In this document: one piece after another, positions 1 through 19,238 of the stretch
How positions within the stretch are numbered: the first letter of the stretch is position 1
How the letters are laid out: each line of letters starts with the position of its first letter
Origin: a virus
Taxonomy: Duplodnaviria; Heunggongvirae; Uroviricota; Caudoviricetes
Strand: one strand, 5' to 3'
DNA length: 28,743 nucleotides
Virus record (IMG/VR): IMGVR_UViG_2711768054_000001
Notes under the pieces: generated by a model
What the model was told of the DNA's origin: nothing
The model's database searches: none
Seen by the model: only the letters and a program-made list of their open reading frames with translations
Program-made: the position numbers and the translations under genes

Positions 1-298
1 CTGTTCAGCAGATTATCAGGCGCAACTGAAGCGGCATAATCTGCGTGGAAGTATGAGCGCAAAAGGTTGCTGCTACGATAATGCCTGCGTGGAAAGCTTC
101 TTTCATTCGCTGAAAGTGGAATGTATCCATGGAGAACACTTTATCAGCCGGGAAATAATGCGGGCAACGGTGTTTAATTATATCGAATGTGATTACAATC
201 GGTGGCGGCGGCACAGTTGGTGTGGCGGCCTCAGTCCGGAACAATTTGAAAACAAGAACCTCGCTTAGGCCTGTGTCCATATTACGTGGGTAGGATCA
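1..298 (+). mobile_element. IS3-family insertion sequence, right end only (left part lies outside the window)
   Basis: Contains the 3-prime end of the transposase orfB (2-268); after the stop the sequence ...cctcgcttaggcctgtgtccatattacgtgggtaggatca ends at 298, matching the IS3 terminal inverted repeat as I remember it (TGATCCTACCCACGTAATATGGACACAGGCCTAAGCGAGG in reverse complement). Confidence 0.8.
2..268 (+). CDS. insF: IS3 transposase OrfB (InsF-like), C-terminal 88 codons, 5-prime partial at window edge
   Basis: Translation from position 2 gives [88 protein letters not shown], which I recognise as the C-terminus of E. coli IS3 InsF (DDE integrase-core end); stop TAG 266-268. Confidence 0.8.
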
Positions 299-419
299 CG
301 CAGGGGTCGGCCCATTTGAGCTTCAGATAGGAACGTTTGAATTCCTTTCACAAAATACATCACATACTGAACGTGAACATACCCACTTTGATCTTAAGGC
401 CAAAAAGTATGCAGGACTA

Positions 420-2138
420 ATGATTTTTAGGGATAGCTTGAGAGTATTTCCTTATGGTCGAGTAGATAATGATTTCTTCCAGATAGAAGAAAGACGTTCA
501 TGGAATGCAGGGCGATATTATTGGTCTAATAGAAGGATTTTTGGTTATATTGGAATTACTCAATCCAGTAATAAAGAGCTGAAAGATAAGTCGGGGAGAG
601 AGGGATTCATAAGAAACCAGGCTGCAAGAGAACTGAAAACTATTATATCTAATTTGTTAACTGAACTTGCTGATAGATTTTTTGGTTCACGTTCTGATGA
701 CCGTAAAGAGCTTTTAGAACAAGTTAAGCGTGAAAAAGAGTTAAGAAAATCTGCTCAACAACAAGCTCGAAAATCAACACAAAAAAGTTTTTCAGAAGCT
801 TTGAAGAATCAGACACCAGTTCTTGATGCTTCCTTGGAGGCTGTTAAAAGGCTGAAAACTAAGCTTGATAAAACTGATGGTTCGTTAGATTTAAACTATC
901 TTAAAATTATAGACAGTGATCTTACAAACTTAGATGCGTTGCGCAGTGAAATTAAAACGCCTATCAAACCTCCAAAACTTGGAATGTATGAAGAGAAATA
1001 TAGAGACTACAGAGATAAATTTAATGAGTTCTCTGCGTATATTCTACAAATGAAGTTAGCAATTAATAAACTTGATTCTGAATTAAATAAACTTGAGCCT
1101 TCATTGTCAGCGAAAAATCACCTTGAAAAAAATCAAGGTATTATTAATTCTAAACTAACTAAGTTTAATAACACGATAGAGGAGAAGATACATTCTCTTT
1201 TAAAAAAATGGGCCGATGAAATAAAGGTTGATCGAAGTGATTATTATGCTAAAACTATATCAGTTGTTGATTCAATAGATAATGATTCACAAATTGAAAA
1301 TGTGTTTAATTTGCTCGATAGTTTATATGTTGAGTCAGTTGATACCCTAACTTTCAAATATCAATCAATAATAAAAGGTCTCGATAGATTATTTGAAGGT
1401 ATAAACTTAGATTCAGCATTCTCATTATCTGAAGAAGAACGCTCATATTTTGAAGAAAAAGCTAAAAGTTTAAACGCGCTTGCACAGTTAGGTATTAGTG
1501 TTGAGATAATATCTCATGAACTTGAAGAAATGGATTCTATGGTAACCAGAGGACTAAACTCTCTTCCTACTTCTGTAAAAGAACACCCTGGTTTTTCATT
1601 GGCGTTAAATGCTCACAGATCGCTTACTCAACAAATACGTTTCTTATCACCTTTGAAAATATCAGGTTATCAATCCAGGCAGAGAATAACTGGAAAAAAT
1701 ATCATGGATTATGTCCTGAAGTTCTTTGGGGAGCGTTTCGAACGGCAACGAATAACTATTGAATTTAGTGAAGAGTTTAAGCAAATCGCAATAACAGATA
1801 TACCATCAAGGATCTATCCTGTTTTTACTAATATTATCAACAATGCAATGTATTGGGTCAGTCTGTCAAATAATAGGCTCATAAAGATTGGTTTTGTGAA
1901 TTCTTTGGTTATCATAGCAAATTCTGGTCCGGCAATTGATACCGATGATATCCCGCGACTATTTGAACTATTTTATAGCAAAAGAGCAAATGGACATGGG
2001 GTAGGTCTGTATCTATGTCGAGAAAACCTTGCTGTTGCACATCATAAAATATGGTATTCAGAACCTGATGAAGGCGATAACTATTTAATAAAAGATGGCG
2101 CTAATTTTGTGATCCAGTTCAATGGAGTGGAGTTCTAA
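420..2138 (+). CDS. Histidine-kinase-like ATPase (DHp + HATPase_c), apparently 5-prime truncated by the IS3 insertion
   Basis: ORF of 572 aa. Putative H-box ISVEIISHELEEMDSM, N-box NIINNAMYW and G-box GHGVGLYLCRENLA near the C-terminus; the N-terminal 330 aa are K/E-rich and look coiled-coil. The reading frame stays open upstream from 420 back to 294, right at the IS3 end, and there is no convincing RBS before the ATG at 420. GC content is visibly low. Confidence 0.55.
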   Translation: MIFRDSLRVFPYGRVDNDFFQIEERRSWNAGRYYWSNRRIFGYIGITQSSNKELKDKSGREGFIRNQAARELKTIISNLLTELADRFFGSRSDDRKELLEQVKREKELRKSAQQQARKSTQKSFSEALKNQTPVLDASLEAVKRLKTKLDKTDGSLDLNYLKIIDSDLTNLDALRSEIKTPIKPPKLGMYEEKYRDYRDKFNEFSAYILQMKLAINKLDSELNKLEPSLSAKNHLEKNQGIINSKLTKFNNTIEEKIHSLLKKWADEIKVDRSDYYAKTISVVDSIDNDSQIENVFNLLDSLYVESVDTLTFKYQSIIKGLDRLFEGINLDSAFSLSEEERSYFEEKAKSLNALAQLGISVEIISHELEEMDSMVTRGLNSLPTSVKEHPGFSLALNAHRSLTQQIRFLSPLKISGYQSRQRITGKNIMDYVLKFFGERFERQRITIEFSEEFKQIAITDIPSRIYPVFTNIINNAMYWVSLSNNRLIKIGFVNSLVIIANSGPAIDTDDIPRLFELFYSKRANGHGVGLYLCRENLAVAHHKIWYSEPDEGDNYLIKDGANFVIQFNGVEF

Positions 2139-2139
2139 T

Positions 2140-3888
2140 ATGACAGTGGCAAATTATAATTCTCTTGTCCAGAAAACTTTCTGCGAAAATGCAATTCGTT
2201 CCGTTGTCATGATTGATGACGATTTTCTGACGTATTCTGAATCAATCAGGGCGTTGAATAACGAAGTTGATTTAGACTACAACAAAATTGACTCATCTAA
2301 ACGAGCCGCTACTCTTGAGAGCTTTTTTCAATCTAAAAATATGATTTGTGATGTTGACAATGGTTCTGTTAATTTCGATGTGGATCGGATTAGAAAATCA
2401 GATCTTATTATTGTAGATTATCATCTTGATAATAATGCACCTGATAAAACACTTAAACTATTACAAGATTTGAAAGACTCCGATCATTTAAATATGGTTG
2501 TAATATATACTAGAGAGAATTTAGAAACGGTTTGGATGCAGATATCATCGACTCTCAAAGGTGCTCTGGATATCAACAGCTTGATCATTGACTACGATAA
2601 TGAAGATGTCCAAAGTTATTGGGAAGACGTTGTATTACCGAACTTAAATGATAATGGTAATAAAGCTCTCACAAGAGATGAAACAATAGCCTATATTAAA
2701 GACAGTAAGCCTTGTAGAAGAATTAAAAGATTAATACATGATGATGCTGTGTTGGAGGATCAAAAGGATAAAAACTTCATTGCAAAAATGATTGCAGAAT
2801 ATGCTGTGTCTAGAAATGCAATTATTTCTAGCAACACATCTGGCAATGTCATTCGGGGTGATGAAAGCGGAGTAAAATGGATTCAATGTGGTAATATCTT
2901 TGTCTCCCTATTTCATAAGGTTCAAGATGATCATGAAAACGATGGAGATAGGATTTGGCAAACTCTCAATGATTCTCTCATTGAATGGAAACCATCTTAT
3001 TATCAGTTAATAAAATCTGAAATTCAGAATGCAATCGAAGCTGAGGCTTTATCTTTTGTAAATCATTTGGCTAACGATCATTACGGTCAAGCTGCGTGGT
3101 TAAATGAGATATTAAAATCAGACTCGCCTGATATTAGATGTAGAAATATTGACTTTGTATTTGGTAATTTATCAGAAGAGCTTTATCAAAGACTTAAAAA
3201 TAATAATACGCTGGATGAATTTATCAAAAGTGTTTTTGATAGCTATTCAAATGAATACGCTAACAGCGGAGTTGCTGCATTGCTCCAATATTGCTCTTCA
3301 AAAATGGATCTGCCATCAAATAATGATACTTATCACGAAATGTATCATGCTTTAAATATGAATTTGTCTTCAAAGAATTTTGAAGATGGTCATATTTCTA
3401 CTGGCACTATTTTCTTTGATACAGAGTCGAACAAATGGTATTTATGTGTATCTGCGGCATGTGATTTGGTTCCTACTCAGGGTAACGACCCTCACCATGT
3501 AAGATTAAGTCCGCACAGGCTCATTAAAGTTCTGGAGCTTTTTAACGCCAGTCAGAGTAAAGCATTGCCATTTGCTGAACATTCGAAATATATATATGTA
3601 ATGCATAAAAATCAAAGAAAATATCTCTCTATTTTCGAAGGGGATAAAACGCTTCCTGTTGTTGATTATATGGTGGTGTTGAATCATGGAACAACAGTTG
3701 ATGGCGAAGAAAAAAATATTATTTCTGCCGTGTTTTTAAGTAATATGGATGGCAACGTGCAAAATGTTCCTGTCCGACTCAAACTTAAATCTCAACTGAG
3801 AACTGGTTATGCAGAAAGATATCAGGCTATAGCGTCTCAGTATAGCTCAAGGATTGGTGTGGATTATGTATCAATGATGCTACCATAA
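2140..3888 (+). CDS. Receiver (REC) domain protein with a ~450-aa C-terminal domain of unknown function
   Basis: N-terminus carries the response-regulator receiver signature: VVMIDDDF (acidic pair), LIIVDYHLD (putative phospho-acceptor Asp), MVVIYTRE (conserved Thr). RBS GGAGTGGAG at 2124-2132; ATG at 2140 lies one base after the upstream stop, suggesting translational coupling. AT-rich. No DNA-binding output domain recognisable. Confidence 0.6.
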   Translation: MTVANYNSLVQKTFCENAIRSVVMIDDDFLTYSESIRALNNEVDLDYNKIDSSKRAATLESFFQSKNMICDVDNGSVNFDVDRIRKSDLIIVDYHLDNNAPDKTLKLLQDLKDSDHLNMVVIYTRENLETVWMQISSTLKGALDINSLIIDYDNEDVQSYWEDVVLPNLNDNGNKALTRDETIAYIKDSKPCRRIKRLIHDDAVLEDQKDKNFIAKMIAEYAVSRNAIISSNTSGNVIRGDESGVKWIQCGNIFVSLFHKVQDDHENDGDRIWQTLNDSLIEWKPSYYQLIKSEIQNAIEAEALSFVNHLANDHYGQAAWLNEILKSDSPDIRCRNIDFVFGNLSEELYQRLKNNNTLDEFIKSVFDSYSNEYANSGVAALLQYCSSKMDLPSNNDTYHEMYHALNMNLSSKNFEDGHISTGTIFFDTESNKWYLCVSAACDLVPTQGNDPHHVRLSPHRLIKVLELFNASQSKALPFAEHSKYIYVMHKNQRKYLSIFEGDKTLPVVDYMVVLNHGTTVDGEEKNIISAVFLSNMDGNVQNVPVRLKLKSQLRTGYAERYQAIASQYSSRIGVDYVSMMLP

Positions 3889-3900
3889 TTATTATATTTT

Positions 3901-3929
3901 AGGCGTGGTGATTTTTTTTCGCCATGCCT
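3901..3929. terminator. Possible bidirectional terminator hairpin between convergent genes
   Basis: Imperfect inverted repeat aggcgtgg (3901-3908) / ccatgcct (3922-3929) flanking a T-run, located between the 3-prime ends of the receiver gene (+) and the membrane-protein gene (-). Confidence 0.35.
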
Positions 3930-3959
3930 ATTTTATATTTATCATCACAATGATGTTGT

Positions 3960-4376
3960 TTATTTTTGTTTAAGTCTTCTAAGCTTCATGCATTCTAATG
4001 AGAATAATAATAGAGTTGTGCTGTATATAAAGCCAGAGTTAGTTAATAACTTTAAATTTAATGCTTCAGGATTTTCACTGAGAAAGTGAAAGGCATAAAC
4101 TAAGTATACAGCTAAAGTAGCCGTTCCAATTGTTGGTCCAATATCGCCTTGATCATGAGGTTCAAGGTTTACATTGAACTTGAAGATTAGCCATTCAAAT
4201 CCCCAAGTAAAAAAAACAACTAATATCATGGCTGCGAATAATTTCGCGATGTTATCTGCTGATGGATTCATCAGAACAGATTGTTTCTGAAAAAATTCAC
4301 AAAGTGAGAGTCCGAAAAAAATAAAAAAAAGTGGTCTGGAACTAAATTTTTCAAAAACTTTGAATAGGGTTTCCAT
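3960..4376 (-). CDS. Small multi-pass membrane protein (138 aa), unknown function
   Basis: ATG at 4376 preceded on the minus strand by RBS AAGGTAAAG; translation shows about four hydrophobic helices (LFFIFFGLSL, AAMILVVFFTWGF, TATLAVYLVYAF, FIYSTTLLLF); AT-rich. Confidence 0.5.
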   Translation of the reverse strand: METLFKVFEKFSSRPLFFIFFGLSLCEFFQKQSVLMNPSADNIAKLFAAMILVVFFTWGFEWLIFKFNVNLEPHDQGDIGPTIGTATLAVYLVYAFHFLSENPEALNLKLLTNSGFIYSTTLLLFSLECMKLRRLKQK

Positions 4377-4414
4377 TTTCTTTACCTTCAGGATTATATT
4401 AGCTATTCTGATAC

Positions 4415-5644
4415 TTAGGCTACCAGAGCATTTGATCTTTGAGCTTGAACGTAATCACTCCACCATTGCATCAAACTCTGTCGCTCTATCAGATATTCTG
4501 CACGATTGTATGCTGCGATAATTTCATCTTTTTTCGAGTGGGCAAGCGCTGCCTCAAGAACTTCAGCTCTGAATTTACCAGACTCCTCTGCCGCTGTTCG
4601 TGCAATAGAACGCATACCGTGAGCTACAAGCTCGCCTCCGAACCCCATTCGGATGATAGCTGCGTTGGCTGTTTGTTCATGCATATGATTAAGAGGCGCT
4701 TTTATGCTGGGGAAAACCCATTCTCTATGCCCACTTATTGATTTCATTAATTCAAGGATGCGCAAAGCTTCTTTACTCAAAGGAACTTTGTGAAGCTTTT
4801 TCATTTTCATGAAATCAGCAGGAATGTTCCAAATGCTGTTGGTTGTATCAATATCAGACCACCTTGCGCGAACGGCTTCACCCGGACGAACCCATGTCAA
4901 CAATTGCCATTCAATTAGCATACGTGTTTCCAACCGGATTGACGCATTCGTCAAAGATTCCATAAACCTTGGCAATTCGCTTGGGGGAAGGGCAGGCATA
5001 TTTTGCTTTTTTGGTTTACTGAATCTTTGACCAAGGTTGTCAGCCGGGTTGAACTCAATAAGTTCTTCAGTAGCTGCCCACCGGAAGATTTCATTCAGAC
5101 GTGAAATGATACGGCGTAGAGTTTCCAATACGCCTCGTTGCTCAATAGGATCAAGGTGTTGTTTTAAGAGCTTAGGTCGGATCTCATTGATAGGGACATT
5201 ACCCAGACCGGGAAAGACATTTCTCTCTAAGCTGCGCCAGATGTCTGCTGCATGGTCTTGTGAGATACCTGATGTCTTTACCTTCTCATCTAACCATTTC
5301 CGCGCTACGGCTTGGAGAGTGTGCTCAGTAGCACTCTTTAATGCCTTCGCCTTATCGTTGTTATGGATTTGGGGATCAACACCATTTGCCAGAAAGGAGA
5401 GATATTCATCACGTAAGGCTCTGGCTCTTGCAAGGGTAAGGTGAGGATATGTCCCAAGGCTCATTTTGGTTCTTTTCTTGCTCACTGGTACTGCATACCT
5501 GAAATACCAATTTTTCTTGCCTCCTTTCGCCAAAGGAGCGATTCGTAGAATCAGACCATCACCGTCAAACAAGTTGATTTCTTTATCGGCTGGCTTGGTG
5601 CTTTTGATTTCAGTGTCAGTGAGCTTCTTAGCGATTTTTGCCAT
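4415..5644 (-). CDS. int: P4/CP4-57-family tyrosine integrase
   Basis: Translation MAKIAKKLTDTEIKSTKPADKEINLFDGDGLILRIAPLAKGGKKNWYFRY... has the typical P4-type integrase N-terminus, and the C-terminal half contains the R...H..R...Y catalytic region (HGMRSIARTAAEE, EAALAHS, Y in AAYNRAEY). I take the ATG at 5644 as the start; the ORF-track start at 5686 would add a GPK/GPT-repeat extension encoded by GGACCC DNA repeats. Confidence 0.85.
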   Translation of the reverse strand: MAKIAKKLTDTEIKSTKPADKEINLFDGDGLILRIAPLAKGGKKNWYFRYAVPVSKKRTKMSLGTYPHLTLARARALRDEYLSFLANGVDPQIHNNDKAKALKSATEHTLQAVARKWLDEKVKTSGISQDHAADIWRSLERNVFPGLGNVPINEIRPKLLKQHLDPIEQRGVLETLRRIISRLNEIFRWAATEELIEFNPADNLGQRFSKPKKQNMPALPPSELPRFMESLTNASIRLETRMLIEWQLLTWVRPGEAVRARWSDIDTTNSIWNIPADFMKMKKLHKVPLSKEALRILELMKSISGHREWVFPSIKAPLNHMHEQTANAAIIRMGFGGELVAHGMRSIARTAAEESGKFRAEVLEAALAHSKKDEIIAAYNRAEYLIERQSLMQWWSDYVQAQRSNALVA

Positions 5645-5809
5645 TTTGGGACCCTCGGTTTTTGGACCCTTCTTAGTGGGTCCCATTCAGGGTGCCATAA
5701 CTCGTAGTTCTCAGCAATTCTCACTGGACGACAATAGACGTAAAAAAGCCCGCAGAGCTTGTGCTGTGTGGGCTTAGTAGACTTCATTGAACTTCAAACA
5801 ACTAAAAAG

Positions 5810-5854
5810 TGGTGGAGCTGGCGGGAGTTGAACCCGCGTCCGAAATTCCTACAT
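5810..5854 (-). other. ssrA: 3-prime-terminal 45 nt of ssrA (tmRNA), an att-site copy, not a complete gene
   Basis: Reverse complement of 5810-5854 reads ATGTAGGAATTTCGGACGCGGGTTCAACTCCCGCCAGCTCCACCA, identical to the 3-prime end (T-arm plus acceptor CCA) of E. coli tmRNA as I recall it. Similarity stops abruptly at 5855; the upstream sequence is AT-rich and unrelated to ssrA. Confidence 0.8.
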
Positions 5855-5970
5855 ACCATTTTGACTATAATAAAAACATATATTTATGTTTTAAAACAGT
5901 ACGTTAGTGTTATTTTGTTTTTGTCGGTTTTACACATTTTTAATGCTCTGCCGCCAAGTTGTCGCCATTG

Positions 5971-6954
5971 CTAATTCCTATCAGCAGGTAGAATTGCTGG
6001 GTAGAGCTTAGAGCAATCATTGCCATAGTCAGGGATAAAGTCCCATAGCCCTTTTGGCGTTTGGAAGACCTCAGGGCTTAAGCCAATCAGCATATAAACA
6101 TGAACTAACAGCTCGCGCAATCCAGTGACCATTTGCTTTATTTGTTTTTCATCAGAGAAAGAAGTGGTGAAGGGTTTTTCTTCAATGGAGTCAAAAAGAA
6201 TAAACTCATGTTTTTCATATCGATAGTCGATCCCTAATTCTCTGCAAAGTTGGATAATATTGATTTCGAGCATTTGAAGGGAAATCACTTGGATATCATA
6301 AGAAGTCTCTTTGTTGTAACAGCTTTTAATAGCTTTGTTGATATTCTTATAATAATCTTGAACTCTACCCATAAATAATGAACTTATTTCTTTGCTATAG
6401 CCTTCTTCAATAGAGGATTTTGTAAAAATATTCATGTAAAGAATATAAGGGTGAGAAATGGAAAGTTCTATATATTTTTTTCCATCATCGTGTTCGGTAA
6501 ACTCTCTACTAACGATAAATGAAGGGACGGTTTTAAAAATATCGGCATAACTCTTCTGGTGGGCATAAAATGAATCAGATTTATTTTTTGCTTTTACCAG
6601 CTCTATTTGATGCTCTGTCCTTGAAAGCTGCGTCTCTGTTTGAATGGTCCTGTGAATATTCTTAACTATAGCTCCAAGAGGTACTGAACTGGCTAGCAGC
6701 ATTAGAGGGAATTTACTGATTTCGTAAAAGCGAGTATAGCCGTGGGCACTTAACACCGGGACCTTGCCCCACCATGCGAAAATCCCAAAATAAAAGAATG
6801 ATAATACTGGTATTCCGATTGATAACCAGAATAATTTCTGTTTTATAAGGTTTTGTTCATTTAATAAATACCACTTGTATTTATATGTTAAATACAATAT
6901 GTATATTAACATTACAACATAGAACATAATGCCAATTGATGAATAAAGGGTCAT
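5971..6954 (-). CDS. Membrane protein of unknown function (327 aa); AT-rich cargo gene downstream of the P2-type integrase
   Basis: N-terminal hydrophobic helices (IGIMFYVVMLIYILYL, LFWLSIGIPVLSFFYFGIFAWWG, LMLLASSVPLGAIV) followed by a ~220-aa soluble domain. The start ATG (6954-6952, minus strand) overlaps the int stop (6953-6951) as ATGA. GC content is clearly lower than the flanking phage genes. Confidence 0.6.
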   Translation of the reverse strand: MTLYSSIGIMFYVVMLIYILYLTYKYKWYLLNEQNLIKQKLFWLSIGIPVLSFFYFGIFAWWGKVPVLSAHGYTRFYEISKFPLMLLASSVPLGAIVKNIHRTIQTETQLSRTEHQIELVKAKNKSDSFYAHQKSYADIFKTVPSFIVSREFTEHDDGKKYIELSISHPYILYMNIFTKSSIEEGYSKEISSLFMGRVQDYYKNINKAIKSCYNKETSYDIQVISLQMLEINIIQLCRELGIDYRYEKHEFILFDSIEEKPFTTSFSDEKQIKQMVTGLRELLVHVYMLIGLSPEVFQTPKGLWDFIPDYGNDCSKLYPAILPADRN

Positions 6955-7979
6955 GCTTTTTTCCAGTCTAATTTGTAAAGTGGATTTTTTGTTACAGCAT
7001 CTTCCAAGTGATCAGGGGCAAAGTGAGCGTAAACCATCGTCATTTTTATATCAGCATGGCCCAGAATATCGCGCAGTACCAGTATATTTCCGCCGTTCAT
7101 CATAAAATGGCTGGCGAATGTATGGCGCAGTACGTGGGTGCACTGGCCCTCTGGCAGTTCGATACCGGCTCGCTTTACTGCACGCTCAAAGGATTTTCTG
7201 CATGGGGTAAATAATCTCCCCCTGTTTTTAGGTAGTTCGTCATACAGTTCTTGAGATATTGGAACGGTTCGGTTTTTTTTACCTTTGGTCTTGGTATAAG
7301 TAATGCGATATTTTGATAACTGATGCCCTTGCAGGTTTTCTGCTTCACTCCATCGGGCACCAGTTGCTAGGCATATTTTTGCAATCATCAACAGACTGGG
7401 ACTCTGAGAATCAGCACAGGCATCCAGTAGGCGTTTAATTTCTTCCGGGGTCAGGAATGCTAGTTCACCCTCAGCGATTTTAAATGTTGGCAGCCCGACG
7501 AGAGGATTTGGTGCTGACCAGTGGCCTAGTTTTTTCAATGTGCCGAAAACCGATGATAGGTTACGTTGCTCAAGATTCACCGTGCGTGGTTTTACTGGCG
7601 ACATTAGTGTGCCGTCTTCGTTACGAAGGTCACCTTTTAACCGTGCTTCGCGGTATTTCGTAAAGTCTCCGGCTGTCAGTTCTGAGGCGATGGGGTCGCC
7701 TAGACCATTACAGATAATTCTAAGTTTCGCCATGAGGCGCTTGGGGTCTGCGAGTGTCTGACCATACAGGGAATACCAAAGCTCAATTAACTCTGATAGG
7801 CGTCGCCGATCATCCTTTTCACCCAACCACGGTTTTTTATTCACTTCTTCCATTGTGAAGCTTTCAAACGCAATGGCTTCGCCTTTCGTGGCAAATTGCT
7901 TACGCACGCGCTTGCCATTGCGTCCATTGGGATAGCACTCACACAACCATTTTCCGTTCGGCTGTTTTCTGATGGTCAT
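6951..7979 (-). CDS. int: P2-type tyrosine integrase
   Basis: 342 aa, MTIRKQPNGKWLCECYPNGRNGKRVRKQFATKGEAIAFE...; C-terminus has ARWSE...HVLRHTFASHFMMNGGNILVLRDILGHADIKMTMVYAH (R-H-R-Y motifs). Size and sequence resemble P2/186 Int. Confidence 0.9.
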   Translation of the reverse strand: MTIRKQPNGKWLCECYPNGRNGKRVRKQFATKGEAIAFESFTMEEVNKKPWLGEKDDRRRLSELIELWYSLYGQTLADPKRLMAKLRIICNGLGDPIASELTAGDFTKYREARLKGDLRNEDGTLMSPVKPRTVNLEQRNLSSVFGTLKKLGHWSAPNPLVGLPTFKIAEGELAFLTPEEIKRLLDACADSQSPSLLMIAKICLATGARWSEAENLQGHQLSKYRITYTKTKGKKNRTVPISQELYDELPKNRGRLFTPCRKSFERAVKRAGIELPEGQCTHVLRHTFASHFMMNGGNILVLRDILGHADIKMTMVYAHFAPDHLEDAVTKNPLYKLDWKKA

Positions 7980-7980
7980 A

Positions 7981-8613
7981 TCAAAGGCTCTTAATGATTT
8001 TCAGTGCGCGGCCTACTACCTCAATGTCATCCAGGCCGCACTCAAACGATGAATCATCCTGATGCACTACTAATTTGTTTCCCGGGAGTCGAGTCAATTT
8101 AACAATGCTTTTTATCCCGTCGATATCGACTAACCACATACCATTTACTAGTGGTGTTTGGTTGCGATCTATTAAATAAGAATCACCAGAAGTAGTTACC
8201 AGCAGTAGGTTGCTTGAGTTTGAGGGGAGTATGCTGCTATCAATGATTGCTTTTCCAGCATCGATCAATAAACCACCGTTGAGAGTCGCCTTGTCAATTT
8301 CAGGAGATACTAGTTCAGAAAGAGGTATAACCTTGCTGGAGTTCACGGAATTGATATTTTTTTTGGGTTCAATGTTTGAACCTGGCTCCCCCTGTCCGGT
8401 GGTTAGCCACAGTAAAGAAACTCCTGTTTCCAAGGCGCACTGAATCACCCACTCTGCAGGAAAACTATCTCTTAAGTATCTGTTTGCCATGGTACTTTTT
8501 GATGCGCCTAAGTGATCGCAAAGTTGCTGTCTGGACTTGAAATCATAGGCTGCCATTAGTCTATGGATAGCCTCTCTTCCCCCTGTATTCTCTCCAGCCT
8601 TTACCTGTATCAT
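7981..8613 (-). CDS. CI-like immunity repressor (HTH N-terminal domain), 186-type
   Basis: 210 aa; divergent from the early operon and adjacent to int; N-terminal helix-turn-helix region (SKSTMANRYLRDSFPAEWVIQCALETGVSLLWLTTGQG); no obvious LexA-like Ser-Lys autocleavage motif. Confidence 0.7.
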   Translation of the reverse strand: MIQVKAGENTGGREAIHRLMAAYDFKSRQQLCDHLGASKSTMANRYLRDSFPAEWVIQCALETGVSLLWLTTGQGEPGSNIEPKKNINSVNSSKVIPLSELVSPEIDKATLNGGLLIDAGKAIIDSSILPSNSSNLLLVTTSGDSYLIDRNQTPLVNGMWLVDIDGIKSIVKLTRLPGNKLVVHQDDSSFECGLDDIEVVGRALKIIKSL

Positions 8614-10581: not shown

Positions 10582-10808
10582 TGGCTGATGCAATGGATCT
10601 CGTACAGCAGCGCGTTGAAGAAGAACGCCAGCGCCATATCCGTGCTGCCCGTGCCAAAACGCCGGGCGTGTCCCGCGTGCTTTGTATTGAGTGTGAAGCG
10701 CCAATTCCGCCAGCACGCCGCCGCGCCATTCCAGGTGTGCAGCTTTGCATTACCTGTCAGGAAATCGCAGAGCTGAAAGGCAAACATTACAACGGAGGTG
10801 CTGTATGA
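10581..10808 (+). CDS. TraR/DksA-family C4 zinc-finger protein
   Basis: 75 aa with CIECEAPIPPARRRAIPGVQLCITCQ, a C-x2-C...C-x2-C zinc finger typical of phage TraR/DksA-like proteins. Confidence 0.75.
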   Translation: MADAMDLVQQRVEEERQRHIRAARAKTPGVSRVLCIECEAPIPPARRRAIPGVQLCITCQEIAELKGKHYNGGAV

Positions 10809-11662
10809 GCACCATCCTGAAATGGGCGGGAAATAAAACCGCCATTATGTCCGAACTGAAAAAGCATCTTCCTGCTGGCCCGCGACTGGTTGAACCTTTC
10901 GCGGGTTCCTGTGCAGTGATGATGGAGACGGAGTACCCCAGCTATCTTGTTGCGGATATTAATCCTGATTTAATCAACCTCTATAAAAAGGTTGCTGCTG
11001 ATTGTGAATCATTTATATCTCGCGCCAGAGTTTTATTTGAGATCGCAAACAGGGAGGTAGCTTATTACAACATAAGGCAGGAGTTTAATTACTCAACTGA
11101 AATTACTGATTTCATGAAAGCGGTATATTTCCTGTATCTCAATCGTCACGGTTACCGTGGTTTATGTCGCTATAACAAGAGCGGGCATTTCAACATTCCC
11201 TACGGTAATTATAAAAATCCGTATTTCCCTGAAAAAGAAATTCGCGCATTTGCAGAAAAAGCCCAGCGAGCAACGTTTATCTGCGCCAGCTTTGATGAAA
11301 CGCTGGCGATGTTGAAGGCGGGGGATGTGGTGTATTGCGATCCGCCGTATGACGGTACGTTTTCCGGCTATCACACTGATGGTTTCACTGAAGATGACCA
11401 GTATCACCTGGCATCCGTTCTTGAACATCGGTCATCAGAAGGACATCCGGTCATTGTTTCTAACAGTGACACATCCCTGATCCGTTCGCTGTATCGCAAT
11501 TTTACTCACCACTATATCAAGGTAAAACGCAGCATCGGTGTGGCAGCTGGCGAGGGTAAATCAGCAACAGAAATCATTGCTGTTTCCGGGCCGCGCTGCT
11601 GGTTGGGATTTGATTATTCGCGTGGCGTGGATAGTTCTGCCGTGTACGGAGTGCGTGCATGA
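10805..11662 (+). CDS. dam: DNA adenine (N6) methyltransferase, Dam-like
   Basis: Motif I PFAGSCAV and catalytic DPPY ([12 protein letters not shown]); ATGA overlap with the upstream stop; RBS GGAGGTG. Confidence 0.85.
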
Positions 11663-14073
11663 GCCATGCTGATATGAACAACTGCAGCGGCTTTAACGAG
11701 GCCGCCGCAGCATTCTCATGGAACAGCCCGAAAAAGGCTATTAACCCTTATCTGGACCCGGCGGAAGTTGCGCCGGTTTCTGCGCTTTCAAACCTGATCA
11801 CTCTGTACGCTGCCGATAACGAGCAGGAACAACTGCGCCGCGAGGCACTGAGTGATCAGGTCTGGGAGCGTTATTTCTTTAATGAATCCCGTGATCCTGT
11901 CCAACGCGAAATGGAGCAGGATAAGCTCATTAGCCGGGCAAAGCTGGCGCATGAGCAGCAGCGTTTTAATCCGGACATGGTCATACTGGCGGACGTTAAA
12001 GCCCAGCCCTCCCATATCAGCAAGCCGCTGATGCAACGTATTGAATACTTCAGCAGCCTGGGCAGGCCAAAGGCTTATTCCCGCTATTTGCGTGAGACGA
12101 TTAAGCCATGTCTGGAACGACTGGAGCATGTACGCGACAGTCAGCTATCCACTTCTTTTCGCTTTATGGCAAGCCATGAAGGGCTGGACGGCCTGCTGAT
12201 CCTGCCTGAAATGAGTCAGGATCAGGTGAAACGCCTGTCTACTCTTGTCGCTGCGCATATGAGCATGTGTCTTGATGCCGCTTGTGGTGATTTGTACGCC
12301 ACCGATGATGTTAAGCCAGAAGAAATCCGCAAGACATGGGAAAAGGTGGCAGCAGAAACCCTGCGACTGGATGTCATACCGCCTGCGTTTGAGCAACTCC
12401 GCCGGAAAAGAAACCGCCGTAAACCCGTACCCTATGAACTCATTCCGGGTTCGCTGGCGCGTATGTTGTGCGCCGACTGGTGGTATCGGAAATTATGGAA
12501 GATGCGTTGCGAATGGCGGGAAGAGCAGTTGCGTGCTGTTTGCCTGGTCAGCAAAAAAGCATCTCCCTATGTCAGCTATGAAGCCGTGATGCATAAACGT
12601 GAGCAGCGCCGTAAGTCGCTGGAGTTTTTCCGTTCTCATGAACTGGTGAACGAAGACGGCGATACGCTGGATATGGAGGACGTGGTAAACGCCAGTAGTA
12701 GCAACCCGGCGCATCGCCGCAATGAGATGATGGCATGTGTTAAAGGTCTGGAGCTTATCGCGGAAATGCGCGGTGACTGCGCCGTTTTCTACACCATCAC
12801 CTGTCCGTCACGTTTCCATTCCACGCTAAATAACGGCAGGCCCAACCCAACCTGGACAAATGCGACGGTAAGACAAAGCAGTGATTATCTGGTCGGCATG
12901 TTTGCTGCATTTCGTAAGGCGATGTACAAAGCCGGATTGCGCTGGTATGGCGTGCGGGTGGCTGAGCCGCATCATGACGGTACAGTTCACTGGCACCTGT
13001 TGTGTTTTATGCGCAAAAAAGATCGCCGCGCCATTACTGCTTTGTTGCGTAAGTTTGCCATTCGTGAAGACCGCGAGGAGCTGGGTAATAACACAGGACC
13101 ACGCTTTAAGTCTGAGCTGATAAACCCGCGCAAAGGTACGCCAACAAGCTACATCGCGAAATACATCAGTAAGAACATTGACGGGCGTGGTCTGGCTGGC
13201 GAGATCAGCAAGGAAACGGGTAAATCCCTGCGTGATAACGCTGAATACGTTAATGCCTGGGCGTCTCTTCATCGTGTTCAGCAATTCCGCTTCTTTGGCA
13301 TTCCGGGGCGTCAGGCTTACCGTGAACTGCGATTGCTGGCTGGTCAGGCGGCAAGGCAACAGGGGGACAAAAAAGCAGGTGCGGCGGTACTGGATAACCC
13401 GCGCATTGATGCCATCCTGGCTGCTGCTGATGCTGGTTGTTTTGCCACCTACATCATGAAGCAGGGCGGCGTACTGGTTCCCCGCAAATATCACCTCATC
13501 AGAACCGCTTATGAAATCAACGAAGAGCCGACCGCCTATGGCGATCACGGCATTCGTATTTATGGCATCTGGTCACCCATTGCAGAGGGCAAGATCTGCA
13601 CTCATGCAGTGAAGTGGAAAATGGTTCGTAAGGCCGTTGACGTTCAGGAGGCGGCAGCCGACCAGGGCGCTTGCGCCCCTTGGACTCGTGGCAATAACTG
13701 TCCCCTTGCTGAAAATTTGAACCAACAGGAGAAAGATAAATCAGCTGATGGGGACCCCAGAACGGACATTACCAGCATGGATGACAAGGAGTTGCACGAT
13801 TACCTGCACAGTATGAGCAAAAAAGAGCGCCGGGAACTGGCAGCAAGGTTACGCCTGGTGAAACCGAAACGGCGTAAAGACTACAAACAGCGAATTACAG
13901 ACCATCAGCGACTGCAGCTCGTGTATGAGCTGAAGTCCAGAGGATTTGATGGCAGCGAGAAAGAGGTCGATTTACTCCTTCGCGGAGGCAGTATTCCGTC
14001 AGGAGCAGGCCTGCGTATCTTCTATCGGAACCAGCGTTTGCAGGAAGATGATCAGTGGCGGAACCTGTATTAA
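11659..14073 (+). CDS. A: Replication initiation endonuclease (P2 gpA-like rolling-circle initiator)
   Basis: 804 aa; HUH-type motif TVHWHLLCF and tyrosine motif [12 protein letters not shown]; size and position match P2/186 gene A. Confidence 0.9.
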
Positions 14074-14980: not shown

Positions 14981-16390
14981 ATGTCTTTTCTTGATATAAA
15001 AAAAATGAGTAAAGAGAGGTTTAATGCTTTTGTTGATTGGACCAGAATGCCAAATACTGAACTTTTAGGCTATGAGTTTGAGTGGTACTGTAGTCCGAGA
15101 GAGTTCCTGCTAGGGGCACTATTATTGGATCAAATCGATGAAGATTATAGCGGTATTGTTTTAGCAAGAGACTTAAGTGGGAGATATAGATGTATTGACC
15201 TATTTACTAGTGTTTCAGAAATGAATTCTGCACGAGCAAAACTAAAGAAATTAATGCGGAAGCATACTAAATTAAACGTAAAAGTATTTCCACAAGGTGA
15301 TGAAACTTATAAAGCAATGGATTTATTCACACCTATAGTTACACCAGATAAACTTCATCATCATTTTTCATTATTTGGTAAATACGCGAACTGGTCGCCT
15401 GCAACAGGGATAATCAAGGAAATGATGAATCATTTTGAGGATGTCGACGGGAATTTTATAGAGCAGTTTCAGACAACAGGTTTTGATGCCCGGCTATGGG
15501 AGTTATATCTTTTCGCATATTTACGAGAGGAACACTTTTGGCTAGATAGGCAGTTTAATGCTCCTGATTATGTGGCACGTAAGTATGGTAATACTATTTG
15601 CATTGAAGCTGTAACGGTTAATCCAACAGGGAATGATATTAATCAATCATCTGAAATGCTATCTGAACCTAAAAGTAAGGAAGAATTGCTAGAGAAAATA
15701 GAGAATTATATGCCGATTAAATTTGGAAGTTCTCTCTATTCTAAACTGAAAAAGAAAACTCGATACTGGGATCTAGAACATGTTAAGGGGAATCCTTTAA
15801 TTTTCGCAATTGCTGATTTTCATGAACCAAACTCTATGATTTGGTCCCATAGTGCACTTTGGCAGTATCTTTATGGTATTCGCTATGAGCATGTTAAATC
15901 TGAAGATGGATGTTACAGTTTAGCAACTAAGAAAATTATATCGCATCAATTTGAGAAAAAGGAAATTCCTTCAGGCTTTTTCTTCTTGGATGAGTCTGAA
16001 AATATTTCGGCCGTCCTTAGTTCTAATAGTGGTACTATATCGAAGTTTAATCGGATGGGAAAACTGGCTGGTTTTGGAAGAAGTGACCTTAGATTATTTA
16101 GGAGTGGTTACTGCCATGATCATGACCCAGAGGCATTATATCCAGCAGCATTTAGTTTTGAAGTGAAAGAAGGCGATATTACAGAAACATGGGCAGAAGG
16201 TTTAAATATGTATCATAATCCTAATGCTAAATATCCTGTAGATCCTGATTTATTTCCTTCAATAGCACATCATTTTCTTGAAAATGGAGAGGTTAAAAGT
16301 ATAGTGCCTGACTTTCATCCGTATACATCTATTACCATAAATGTCTTAACTCAAAATAATAAAAAACAAAAAATCAGAGTAGATGAGTAA
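14981..16390 (+). CDS. Hypothetical protein (469 aa), AT-rich cargo gene between the candidate cos site and the portal gene
   Basis: Long ORF with RBS GAGG upstream; GC content much lower than the flanking phage genes; no motif I can assign (no Walker A, no clear nuclease signature); no TM segments apparent. Confidence 0.7.
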   Translation: MSFLDIKKMSKERFNAFVDWTRMPNTELLGYEFEWYCSPREFLLGALLLDQIDEDYSGIVLARDLSGRYRCIDLFTSVSEMNSARAKLKKLMRKHTKLNVKVFPQGDETYKAMDLFTPIVTPDKLHHHFSLFGKYANWSPATGIIKEMMNHFEDVDGNFIEQFQTTGFDARLWELYLFAYLREEHFWLDRQFNAPDYVARKYGNTICIEAVTVNPTGNDINQSSEMLSEPKSKEELLEKIENYMPIKFGSSLYSKLKKKTRYWDLEHVKGNPLIFAIADFHEPNSMIWSHSALWQYLYGIRYEHVKSEDGCYSLATKKIISHQFEKKEIPSGFFFLDESENISAVLSSNSGTISKFNRMGKLAGFGRSDLRLFRSGYCHDHDPEALYPAAFSFEVKEGDITETWAEGLNMYHNPNAKYPVDPDLFPSIAHHFLENGEVKSIVPDFHPYTSITINVLTQNNKKQKIRVDE

Positions 16391-16437: not shown

Positions 16438-17472
16438 TTAGTCTAGGGATAGTTGATATTCTTTGAATGTAATAATATTATTTTTTAGCCATAAATTTAA
16501 TTCTTCGAAACGTTTTTGCAAAGGTATTAATTCATTACGAACAAATACCCGACTTGCCTTCTCCACATCCCCAAACCCCCCGACATTATTAGGCATAATC
16601 CCCATCATTTGCGGCGGCACTCGGTGTGCTGCCATCATGTCATCGCGGCTCACGTTCTTGATATTCAGAAACTCATCCTTCGCTGCGACTTCTGACAACG
16701 GGATAATCTGAAGTCCGTCTTTTTTACCATTAGGCGAGTACATAAACAGATTGCGGAAGTTGCCAGGGCCTTTGGCGCTTTTCATCGCATTGCGGAGGTT
16801 GTTCACATCCTCCTGGTTCTGCGCGGCATCGGTCATGTACATGATGAAGCCTGCATGACTGCCGTTAATGTAATACTTGCGGCGGAACAGCGTGGCGGAC
16901 TCGTTGAGCAGGGCGGACGGAATGGCAGAAAGATAACCGGGCAGGCCGTAGATCTCCTGGTTGATGTCCGGCTCCATCAGATGAAAAATGCTGCCTTTCG
17001 TGAACTGATACGGCTGGGTTGTCATACCGTATTGCACAAACCAGTAGGTATCCAGGTCTAACCCGCGTCGGGTGTATTTTGCCAGGGCAGGTTCAAGGGC
17101 GATAACTTCACCGAAGCGGTTCGTGCGTTTCTCCAGGTAGGCGTTACCAAATACCAGATAGTCCTGCACAAAACGCGAAAAAGCCTGCTGGCTGAGCAGC
17201 GGGTGAGGGATGTAGGTGCTGGTCAGAATGTTGCACTTTACTGCAATCGGGGAACTATGATGCACGGCAGCGCGGAAGGTGCGCGCCAGTCCGTCAAAGC
17301 TGACGGGCGGCTCATACCAGCGGTCCATCTGTACGCATTCCACATAATCCAGCAGTTCTCGGCGGTCCAGAACAGGAACGGGATCGCCGAAGCTGAATGC
17401 TTCGGCTGAAGTCTGGCTTTTATGCTGAATCTGGTTCGTCGATGCAGCGCGGTTCTTCTTACTCTTTCCCAT
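16438..17472 (-). CDS. Q: Portal protein (P2 gpQ-like)
   Basis: 344 aa, the size of P2 gpQ; lies downstream of terminase P on the same strand with start and stop overlapping (TGATG). I place the ATG at 17472; the ORF-track start at 17475 is TTG. Confidence 0.9.
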   Translation of the reverse strand: MGKSKKNRAASTNQIQHKSQTSAEAFSFGDPVPVLDRRELLDYVECVQMDRWYEPPVSFDGLARTFRAAVHHSSPIAVKCNILTSTYIPHPLLSQQAFSRFVQDYLVFGNAYLEKRTNRFGEVIALEPALAKYTRRGLDLDTYWFVQYGMTTQPYQFTKGSIFHLMEPDINQEIYGLPGYLSAIPSALLNESATLFRRKYYINGSHAGFIMYMTDAAQNQEDVNNLRNAMKSAKGPGNFRNLFMYSPNGKKDGLQIIPLSEVAAKDEFLNIKNVSRDDMMAAHRVPPQMMGIMPNNVGGFGDVEKASRVFVRNELIPLQKRFEELNLWLKNNIITFKEYQLSLD

Positions 17473-19238
17473 CAAAAAATCTCCACAATATTGCTGGTAT
17501 TGGCGGACTCGCCCTGCAGCGGTTCGTTAAACAGTGCGTGCATTGTTGCCCAGGCCAGATCGGCATGGCTGGCTTCTTCGCTGCGGCTGGCTTCATAGGT
17601 CGGGCGGTTGCCGCTGGCGGTGGTGGCGCGACGGATTGCCATAAATGACTGCGCTATGTCGGTGTGTCCGGCGTCAAACTCCAGACGACGGTGACTGATA
17701 ATGTCGTAGGCTTTGAGTACCAGGGCATTTTTAACGTTGGGGTTGTAGACAAACTCCCGGACGGCAGGAAAGAACGCTTTCACGTTCTCGTAAACCCCGT
17801 GACCGACACCTGTCGAGTCGATGCCGATGTATGTCACGTTGTACTGTTCGGTCAGTTTTTTGATGGCGTCAGCCTGGGCGCGGAAGTCCATCCCGCGCCA
17901 CTGGTGACGCTCAAGAATGCGGAACTTACCGCCCGGCACGGCTGGCGGTGCCACCACCACGCACCCGGCGCTGTCGCCGTTTTGCGTACCTTTTGCCGGG
18001 TCATAACCGATCCACACTTCGCGCCAGCCAAACGGGCGCAGGGCCAGTGCATGAAAGTCGGTCCAGACTTCCCAACTGTCCACCATGCACGCCTGCAGCT
18101 CGCTGAGCGGGAACACGGACGCGAGATCGTCCACGAACTCACACATCAGCAGGTTCTGGTATTCGTCCGGGCTGTACTCCATGCGCAACTGATCGAGGTC
18201 GAACAGGTTACAGCCGCCGCGCACCGCATCTTCCACGGTGACTATCTGGCGGTATTGCCCGTCTGCGCACAGCAGGCCGGGGGCCAGATTGCTGTGGGAC
18301 AGGTCGATGTCCACCTTGTCAGCTTTGTTGCGCCCACGGTTGAACAGCGCACCGGACCAGAACGGATAAGCACTGTGGGTCAGACTGGATGGTGTGGAAA
18401 AATAGGTCTGCCGCCATTTCTTGTGAATAGCCATACCGGAAGCCACTTTGCGTAGCTCCTGAAATTTCGGTATCCAGAAATATTCATCCAGATACAGGTT
18501 GCCGTGATAACTCTGGGCCGTGCGGGCATTGGTGCCGAGGAAGTAAAGCGTGGCCCCGTTAGGAAGCACCATCGGATCGCCTTTCAGCTCCACCTCCACT
18601 TCTTTGGAGAAGTCGATGATGTACTGCTTAAAGACGTGGGCCTGTGCCTTACTGGCGGAAAGGAAAATCTGGTTACGCCCGGTAAGCAGGGCGTCAATCA
18701 GGGCTTCACGGGCAAAGTAAAAGGTCGCGCCGATCTGGCGTGACTTCAGCAGGTTGCGGATGCGGTTGGTTTTTCCGGCTTCCCACCAGTGGCGCTGGTA
18801 GTTGAACATGGAGGAATGGAAGATTTCTTCCAGCTTCTCAATCTGCTCATCGGTGAAAACATTCTTTTCCGGCTGACGGCGTGGGCCTTTATTGCGGTTG
18901 GCGACGTTAGGGTTTAAGTCGGCTTCGTTGCCGCCATTGTTAAACTTGCCGATCCGCGCGTGGCGCTCCGACTGGCGCGCCAGCAGGTCAATCTCTTTGA
19001 AATCTTTCCCTTCTTTGTGCTCCTTCATGATGAGCTGGCAGTAGCGTGCGGCGGTGGTGAGCTGCATCTGATCCAGCGGCCCATAGTCACCCCACTTGTC
19101 GCGTTTTTTCCAGCTGTGAACGGTTGCAACTTTCTCGCCCAGCATTTCAGCAATGCGGGCTACGCGGTATCCCTGAAAGTACAGCAGCATGGCCTGCCGA
19201 CGGGGATCGAGATCTGCGGGTGTCAGTGTGGTGTTCAT
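17472..19238 (-). CDS. P: Terminase large (ATPase) subunit (P2 gpP-like)
   Basis: 588 aa; Walker-A-like RQIGATFYFAREA; divergently transcribed from the capsid operon as in P2. Confidence 0.9.
   Translation of the reverse strand: MNTTLTPADLDPRRQAMLLYFQGYRVARIAEMLGEKVATVHSWKKRDKWGDYGPLDQMQLTTAARYCQLIMKEHKEGKDFKEIDLLARQSERHARIGKFNNGGNEADLNPNVANRNKGPRRQPEKNVFTDEQIEKLEEIFHSSMFNYQRHWWEAGKTNRIRNLLKSRQIGATFYFAREALIDALLTGRNQIFLSASKAQAHVFKQYIIDFSKEVEVELKGDPMVLPNGATLYFLGTNARTAQSYHGNLYLDEYFWIPKFQELRKVASGMAIHKKWRQTYFSTPSSLTHSAYPFWSGALFNRGRNKADKVDIDLSHSNLAPGLLCADGQYRQIVTVEDAVRGGCNLFDLDQLRMEYSPDEYQNLLMCEFVDDLASVFPLSELQACMVDSWEVWTDFHALALRPFGWREVWIGYDPAKGTQNGDSAGCVVVAPPAVPGGKFRILERHQWRGMDFRAQADAIKKLTEQYNVTYIGIDSTGVGHGVYENVKAFFPAVREFVYNPNVKNALVLKAYDIISHRRLEFDAGHTDIAQSFMAIRRATTASGNRPTYEASRSEEASHADLAWATMHALFNEPLQGESANTSNIVEIF

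Follow-up and report, generated by a model that had tools for sequence, protein, structure and literature searches.

Gene pairs that encode a histidine kinase and a receiver protein of unusual build were described computationally in 2021, when the Pfam families HEF_HK (PF19191) and Response_reg_2 (PF19192) were created for exactly such pairs, with Escherichia coli members included (Bellieny-Rabelo, Pretorius & Moleleki 2021, PMC8011034). In that account, linkage of the two genes reaches 91.6%, the kinases are soluble and in most cases have a HATPase_c_3 (paraMORC) domain at the N-terminus, and the remainder of the receiver protein is without a known domain. The pairs are associated with C5 methylases, type II restriction-modification genes and Vsr, and restriction-modification domains are over-represented around them (PMC8011034). 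The present analysis concerns such a pair in a stretch of 28,743 nucleotides (nt) from IMG/VR virus record IMGVR_UViG_2711768054_000001, hereafter the window, in which all coordinates are 1-based. The pair consists of the 3' remnant of a kinase gene (300-2138, + strand) and a receiver-effector gene (2140-3888, +). It is a degraded member of the HEF_HK/Response_reg_2 module, and it is probably the decaying remnant of a three-gene mobile module made up of a C5 methylase, a MORC-headed kinase of ~990 amino acids (aa) and the receiver-effector.

The window pair shares with the described module both protein families, the adjacency of the genes at a distance of 1 nt, the soluble kinase and the lack of a second domain in the receiver protein. 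A preliminary description of this DNA, made from the sequence, had considered an undescribed variant. This does not hold, as both genes belong to the Pfam families made for such a pair (PMC8011034), and in AJ304858 the same E. coli stretch already bears the annotations 'remnant integrative element' and 'histidin kinase-like protein'. Two differences from the module are secondary losses. The HATPase_c_3 head, present in 83% of family members, is missing from the window copy, and the linked C5 methylase of the relatives has no counterpart in window 1-5800. Compared with the 2021 account, the 47 informative loci analyzed below give a strict three-gene unit without a conserved nuclease.

A sibling system, Ambrosia (AbrR, AbrA, AbrB, AbrC and AbrD), combines a methylase, a kinase, a receiver and an HNH protein and blocks phages, for which the receiver aspartate is required (bioRxiv 10.1101/2025.09.30.679545). 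Like the family considered here, Ambrosia brings together on mobile DNA a DNA methylase, a kinase with a HATPase_c_3 head and a C-terminal HATPase_c domain, and a receiver protein. The likeness extends to the kinase sequence within AbrB residues 1-399, the part that was compared: this part is 27% identical over 187 aa to the head of an intact orthologue of the window kinase (BLASTP E 2e-10), and a second AbrB segment matches the IFRD-LRV-PYG region, which the window kinase keeps (E 1e-5). However, Ambrosia employs an N6-adenine methylase, a separate HNH nuclease and an XRE regulator, whereas the family has a C5-cytosine methylase and no HNH gene, no conserved gene of HNH size being found in 50 loci. 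AbrC, a 209-aa receiver, displays no detectable similarity to the receiver protein of the window and no Response_reg_2 match; unlike AbrC, the receiver of the family is fused to a conserved domain of ~300-400 residues. Given its different class of methylase, its unrelated receiver protein and the lack of an HNH gene, the family is a sibling of Ambrosia and not a member of it.

The Detocs system (DtcA, DtcB and DtcC), the architecture of which was reportedly laid out by Rousset and colleagues in 2023, is alike in theme only, namely in kinase-to-receiver phosphotransfer that gates a receiver-fused effector. The family lacks the stand-alone buffer receiver and the PNP/nucleosidase effector of Detocs, whereas Detocs lacks the MORC-type head and the obligatory methylase of the family. 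The resemblance to Detocs that had been proposed for the window pair thus survives as a theme and fails in its components. With no buffer receiver, no PNP effector and no PADLOC match, Detocs was rejected as an assignment; PADLOC v2 gave no system-specific match for either window protein or for the intact orthologues, and for the window proteins no match at E <= 0.01.

A further relationship leads to the paraMORC/MORC GHKL ATPases, which share with the family the N-terminal GHKL and S5 regions, the proximity to cytosine methylases and Vsr, and the residence on mobile DNA (Iyer, Abhiman & Aravind 2008, PMC2292703). Those ATPase families pair with or are fused to helicases or nucleases, whereas the head of the present family is fused to a histidine-kinase core and paired with a receiver protein.

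A truncated kinase gene and its receiver partner

The pair lies in AT-rich DNA (299-3888; 34.3% GC versus 48% for the whole window), with the end of an insertion sequence (IS), IS3, on one side and a P4-type integrase beside the ssrA attachment site on the other. The annotated kinase coding sequence (CDS; 420-2138, +) encodes 572 aa, and its reading frame is open already from base 300. HEF_HK matches residues 356-414 (nt ~1485-1661; E 1.2e-5; 26.1 bits versus a cut-off of 24.1), followed by the HATPase_c CA domain at residues 462-553 (nt ~1803-2078; E 1.8e-11). The motif SHELEE occupies residues 365-370, with His366 at nt 1515-1517, while NIINNAMYW begins at residue 471 and GHGVGLYL at residue 525; the remnant also keeps the IFRD-LRV-PYG region (423-458) and a coiled-coil region. 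After the TAA stop codon at 2136-2138 and one spacer base, the ATG of the receiver gene follows at 2140.

In the receiver-effector protein (582 aa), Response_reg_2 covers residues 19-175 (nt 2194-2664; E 6.8e-31; 108 bits versus a cut-off of 27). The acidic pair D26/D27 is found in MIDDDF, D93 (nt 2416-2418) in IIVDYHLD and T124 in VVIYT. D93 is the predicted phospho-acceptor. K260, which closes a hydrophobic strand, is probably the beta5 lysine of the receiver, located beyond a helical insertion, as judged by secondary structure and conservation only. All motifs quoted in the preliminary description are therefore present and accompanied by Pfam matches, so that its histidine-kinase and receiver assignments are not due to chance; the high AT content and the translational coupling of the two genes that it reported are also borne out.

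The G1 box of the CA domain (window 1917-1940) reads A-N-S-G-P-A in enterobacterial and Acinetobacter kinases and A-D-T-G-K-G, the canonical DxGxG form, in a distant relative (L011). The replacement of the adenine-contacting Asp by Asn extends across a whole kinase subfamily that was under purifying selection.

The N-terminus of the kinase is cut off, since IS3 ends at 298 and the frame is open from 300, in line with the preliminary description. The IS3 right end spans 1-298 (+) and comprises the 3' part of orfB (53-268) together with the terminal inverted repeat, the last bases of which (...GGATCA) end at 298. RefSeq places an 'IS3-like element IS3 family transposase' at this position in identical genomes. 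In an alignment with five intact orthologues of ~990 aa, the remnant lines up with residues ~379-991 of the complete kinase. The window kinase, the frame of which begins at the IS3 junction, lacks the N-terminal HATPase_c_3 ATPase head. An 86%-identical orthologue in another enterobacterium (L003) occupies the same ssrA/integrase site with the same integrase type, and its homology to the window starts at base 298, equivalent to kinase codon ~379. An IS3 insertion together with an adjacent deletion removed the methylase gene and kinase residues 1-378, that is, the whole GHKL head. Comparison with intact homologues, proposed in the preliminary description as a way to recover the kinase N-terminus, thus returned the HATPase_c_3 head. 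In prophage-free genomes, a truncated chromosomal gene lies on the far side of IS3.

The truncated state is the form found in E. coli. Window bases 1-5800 recur at >=99% identity in 560 complete E. coli genomes, which identifies the window as E. coli DNA, and the full remnant is present in 560 of the 5426 complete genomes. The methylase gene and the kinase head are covered in none of the 5426, while 561 match from the truncation point onwards only. In ~10% of complete E. coli genomes, annotation pipelines call the two genes 'ATP-binding protein' and 'response regulator receiver domain'.

Several single records deserve mention. In L012 (AJ304858, 2733) and L063 (NZ_CP045827.1), the truncation falls at the same base with no IS3 annotated there; homology of AJ304858 begins at window base 291, and IS3 and IS629 pieces cut its integrase. 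In both records, IS3 was probably lost or rearranged after the deletion. A 5.6-kb contig labelled as a Bacteroidales metagenome-assembled genome (L015, DAIPZW010000118.1) is 99.9% identical to the E. coli remnant, and the kinase it encodes is truncated to 572 aa in the same way; mis-binning of E. coli DNA into a Bacteroidales genome is the probable origin.

Comparison with the intact L003 locus gives low ratios of nonsynonymous to synonymous substitution rates (dN/dS): the kinase part has 0.049 and the receiver protein 0.084, with a drop to 0.03 in receiver residues 411-582. Among ten E. coli copies, in contrast, distinct single-nucleotide polymorphisms number 17 nonsynonymous versus 2 synonymous. 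E. coli copies also exhibit frameshifts flagged by PGAP, a 21-nt deletion and IS600/IS3 insertions, with ~6 of 29 evenly spaced copies being disrupted. Because this 17:2 ratio, the frameshifts and the IS insertions stand against the low dN/dS to the intact orthologue, the constraint appears relaxed, which fits a relaxation of selection on the E. coli remnant after truncation.

These data bear on whether the two genes could be a self-sufficient, working phosphorelay defence system, in which the truncated kinase would sense infection and activate the receiver-effector. Although the window and most carriers have both reading frames intact, two components that are universal in the relatives, the methylase and the HATPase_c_3 head, are missing, and no intact relative is without the methylase. 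Likewise, 560 genomes retain the pair, and its DHp histidine, N box, G2 box and receiver acidic pocket are preserved; against this stand the excess of nonsynonymous changes within E. coli and the frameshifts or IS insertions in about one-fifth of the sampled copies. A working system in the window is thus very improbable, and the kinase stub and the receiver protein are most likely inert passengers. The preliminary description had put the pair forward as a candidate working defence system; for the window copy, this gives way to a relic under relaxed selection, which should not be counted as a defence system, while for the parent family the idea of a defence role is reasonable.

The intact three-gene unit in relatives

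The parent family was analyzed at 50 loci with receiver-protein identities of 21-100%, after 46 further loci had been fetched from species-representative genomes, and neighbouring open reading frames (ORFs) were clustered. For the methylase, 47 loci were informative; the three left out are a copy of the E. coli remnant and two loci at contig edges. A kinase gene (median 993 aa) lies immediately upstream of the receiver gene on the same strand in 48 of 50 loci, the other two being contig edges, and a C5 cytosine methylase is present in 47 of 47 informative loci. In the methylase cluster, Pfam detects DNA_methylase in 47 members and Vsr in 12. No further gene family is conserved in more than 7 of the 50 loci, the family found in 7 being integrases, and no conserved nuclease gene was found across the 50. 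Because clustering recovers the kinase in 48 of 50 loci, the methylase in 47 and no other shared family, the intact system is a methylase, a kinase and a receiver protein without a separate nuclease. The two-gene module first proposed for the window was therefore incomplete: relatives add the C5 methylase, and their kinase normally has a 380-residue MORC-like GHKL head.

The intact kinase is a soluble protein with a MORC-like GHKL head, an S5-like region, a coiled coil, the HEF_HK DHp domain and the CA domain. In L003, for example, the 991-aa kinase carries HATPase_c_3 (E 4.9e-9), HEF_HK and HATPase_c, and the C5 DNA methylase gene precedes and overlaps the kinase gene. The trio is also found in Pantoea (L002; P. 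dispersa GCA_004009945.1, ML137047.1, about 1,264,300-1,270,300, with the intact operon at L002 5790-11746), in a Salmonella integrative and conjugative element (ICE; L004-6; operon at L004 3852-9752) and in Acinetobacter Tn7 cargo (L007-9), where the methylase is convergent and adjoins an HTH_3 gene. Citrobacter amalonaticus S646 (L016) has an intact operon too. Metagenomic relatives at 25% identity (L010, L011) carry it as well. Clustered at 50% identity, the family comprises 412 representatives from Proteobacteria, Planctomycetota, Verrucomicrobiota and Myxococcota. A search of plasmid DNA gave no match, the plasmid protein search returned two distant chromid/megaplasmid copies, and in the phage collection the remnant is present only as the chromosomal flank of two prophage records.

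Across the 50-locus set (L002-L060), kinase and receiver identities covary tightly (Spearman 0.96), whereas the methylase covaries weakly (0.38) and varies in side and strand between loci. The methylase is always of the C5 type yet exchangeable. In addition, there are at least two methylase lineages (identity classes of ~50% and ~30%), the distribution of which departs from the kinase/receiver tree. The receiver protein diverges faster than the kinase in every comparison, for example with 27% versus 46% identity.

An ordinary housekeeping two-component system that came to lie in an island by chance can be judged against the same loci. Such a reading could draw on the NCBIfam matches of generic histidine-kinase families to the CA domain of the window kinase, but these are weak and far below the cut-off (best 36 bits versus 646). 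Moreover, there is no DNA-binding output and no membrane sensor, and the module occurs on mobile elements only, always with a C5 methylase and patchily across phyla. As the preliminary description had argued, the pair is not a housekeeping system; family assignments and genomic contexts refute this explanation and leave it next to no probability.

The output domain and the proposed working of the family

In the receiver-effector, a Response_reg_2 receiver is joined in one chain with a conserved output domain of ~300 residues. The output region, residues ~285-582 (nt ~2992-3885), consists of a helical bundle and a beta-rich domain, with boundaries drawn from secondary structure and conservation only. 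In the 412 cluster representatives, residues ~229-582 are conserved as a single block, nearly always after an N-terminus of ~230 residues. Near-invariant positions among 210 members are W247, F254, K260, P285, N406, G422, C436, C441, D442, Q552, R554, Y557, R560, R571, G573 and D575. Among the 150 best of the 412 matches, nearly all proteins have ~560-680 aa and the same layout, and there is no evidence for shuffling of the output domain; short matches may be fragments. Pfam, NCBIfam and PADLOC hold no family for residues ~180-582, in agreement with the earlier remark that no output domain is recognizable. Pfam at E <= 10 likewise gave no match for residues 229-582 or 400-582, a profile of residues 415-582 returned only chance matches among all PDB sequences (E ~1), and Foldseek found nothing significant in the PDB for the C-terminal model.

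One explanation of this domain is a CcdB/MazF-type toxin restrained by the unphosphorylated receiver; the module would then cause abortive infection through a toxin gated by phosphorylation, and methylation would serve as the self signal. Neither sequence profiles nor Foldseek support a CcdB/MazF/Kid fold, and when hhalign compared the C-terminal profile of 210 sequences with one of MazF, the probability was 0.1%, a weak negative given the shallow profile (Neff 2.6). In contrast to such toxins, the domain belongs to a 582-aa protein, in which it lies behind a receiver and a helical bundle, and no antitoxin gene is present. This explanation is unlikely.

A different proposal is that the intact module is regulatory. 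In this model, put forward in the 2021 paper (PMC8011034) and for Ambrosia (bioRxiv 10.1101/2025.09.30.679545), the receiver protein would act as a transcription factor to turn the methylase, or the operon, on and off, giving an epigenetic or addiction switch and not direct killing. However, the 47 loci contain no conserved restriction gene to be controlled, and no helix-turn-helix family is detected in the 582 residues. The most constrained part of the protein is its beta-rich C-terminus (dN/dS 0.03) and not a helix-turn-helix, and Ambrosia AbrC is unrelated in sequence and architecture. A regulatory role is accordingly rather improbable. A classical type II restriction-modification system was also considered and was rejected, no nuclease fold being found.

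For the parent of the window remnant, the three-gene mobile module, the following working is proposed. The methylase would mark the DNA of the host; constitutive 5-methylcytosine can be argued because Vsr repair genes often adjoin the methylase. The MORC-like head, a DNA-clamping ATPase of the type found in restriction-modification contexts, may sense invading or unmethylated DNA or another infection cue and thereby drive autophosphorylation of the DHp histidine (His366 in remnant numbering). The phosphoryl group would then pass to D93 of the receiver, releasing the fused output domain as an effector, possibly a toxin or a nucleic-acid-targeting protein. A defence role is made plausible by the carriage of the modules on ICEs, Tn7 and integrase islands, by the homology of the kinase head to AbrB of Ambrosia, and by the presence of the methylase in every informative locus, the kind of dependence that a restriction-modification system would be expected to show. 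The intact kinase head matches the PADLOC model REase_II (E 1.6e-9), and the methylase matches MTase_II.

Several points weigh against this reading. Searches of the output domain in Pfam, NCBIfam and PADLOC, by PDB profile and with Foldseek revealed no signature of a nuclease or of any other catalytic activity. Literature searches on the family found the 2021 computational paper only, and no experiment. Swapping of methylases sits awkwardly with a restriction enzyme of the classical, sequence-matched type. The Ambrosia methylase did not protect phage DNA (bioRxiv 10.1101/2025.09.30.679545), so the logic of self-marking may not transfer. Finally, the sample behind the relaxed selection is small (10 copies), and some of it comes from the low-identity tail.

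The parent family is of more interest than the window copy. Its three genes form a strict unit in which a cytosine methylase is obligatory and a nuclease is lacking, its carriers are ICEs, Tn7 and integrase islands, and in Ambrosia it has a sibling that does defend against phage. It is conceivable, though with less than even odds, that the intact family is a widespread, uncharacterized restriction-modification-like immune system without a recognizable nuclease, in which a DNA-clamping GHKL ATPase would read methylation status and relay the result to an effector of a new kind through His-Asp phosphotransfer. The only methylase-less copy found is the E. coli remnant, which has also lost the sensor head. 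Joint loss of sensor and methylase may offer a route to lose a potentially self-toxic system without killing the cell. If so, the E. coli remnant would record such a safe loss, with sensor and methylase deleted together.

Surroundings of the remnant in the window

The integrase next to the pair is a P4/CP4-57-type tyrosine integrase (longest ORF 4415-5686, -; RefSeq CDS 4415-5644) with the Pfam domains Arm-DNA-bind_3, Phage_int_M and Phage_integrase and a match to NCBIfam PRK09692 at 440 bits, which upholds the mobile-island context first described. It has 82% nucleotide identity with the integrase that adjoins the intact L003 system. The attachment site of the island is the 3'-terminal ~45 nt of ssrA, the transfer-messenger RNA (tmRNA) gene, at 5810-5854 (-), as defined by comparison with L001. 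In L001, ssrA is the equivalent of window 5810-6172, and identity between L001 and the window stops at 5854. Rfam gives a sub-threshold tmRNA match at 5810-5985, and ARAGORN finds no complete tmRNA. The locus has the P4-type integrase at a tRNA/tmRNA attachment site that marks P4-like satellites and CP4-57-type islands, and no satellite functions (primase, capsid-size or Psu/Delta-type genes) were found between ssrA and IS3. Besides the two remnant genes, this interval contains just the integrase and an ORF of 138 aa.

The 138-aa ORF (3960-4376, -) is hydrophobic, is annotated by RefSeq as a 'hypothetical protein' and sits in an AT-rich stretch of ~505 bp (3910-4414) that has no counterpart in the intact orthologous island L003. 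It has no family match in Pfam, NCBIfam or PADLOC and probably lies outside the system. A sub-threshold Rfam match to the small RNA IsrM (5742-5885, -; 56 bits versus a gathering score of 376) spans the integrase-ssrA junction and probably reflects similarity of attachment regions, not a gene.

Past base 5854, the window differs from prophage-free genomes, and a P2/186-like prophage starts. The prophage (5971-28743) is inserted at the ssrA 3' end directly beyond the remnant island; because it abuts the island, ssrA holds two integrative elements in tandem. It encodes an integrase (6951-7979), a CI-type repressor (7981-8613), a gpA replication protein (11659-14073), a portal protein (16438-17475) and a terminase (17472-19238). 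An AT-rich 327-aa ORF (5971-6954, -) with a hydrophobic N-terminus and no Pfam, NCBIfam or PADLOC match occupies the variable-cargo slot of P2-like phages, between the ssrA fragment and the P2-like integrase. An orphan DNA methyltransferase (10745-11662, +; PADLOC oMTase, E 3e-111) is unrelated to the missing C5 methylase of the remnant. A 469-aa ORF in an AT-rich pocket (14981-16390, +; 33-35% GC) has no match in Pfam and matches PADLOC PD-T7-1 over its full length (E 1.3e-196) and PD-T7-5 more weakly; this ORF is apparently an intact defence gene carried as cargo in a P2 hotspot.

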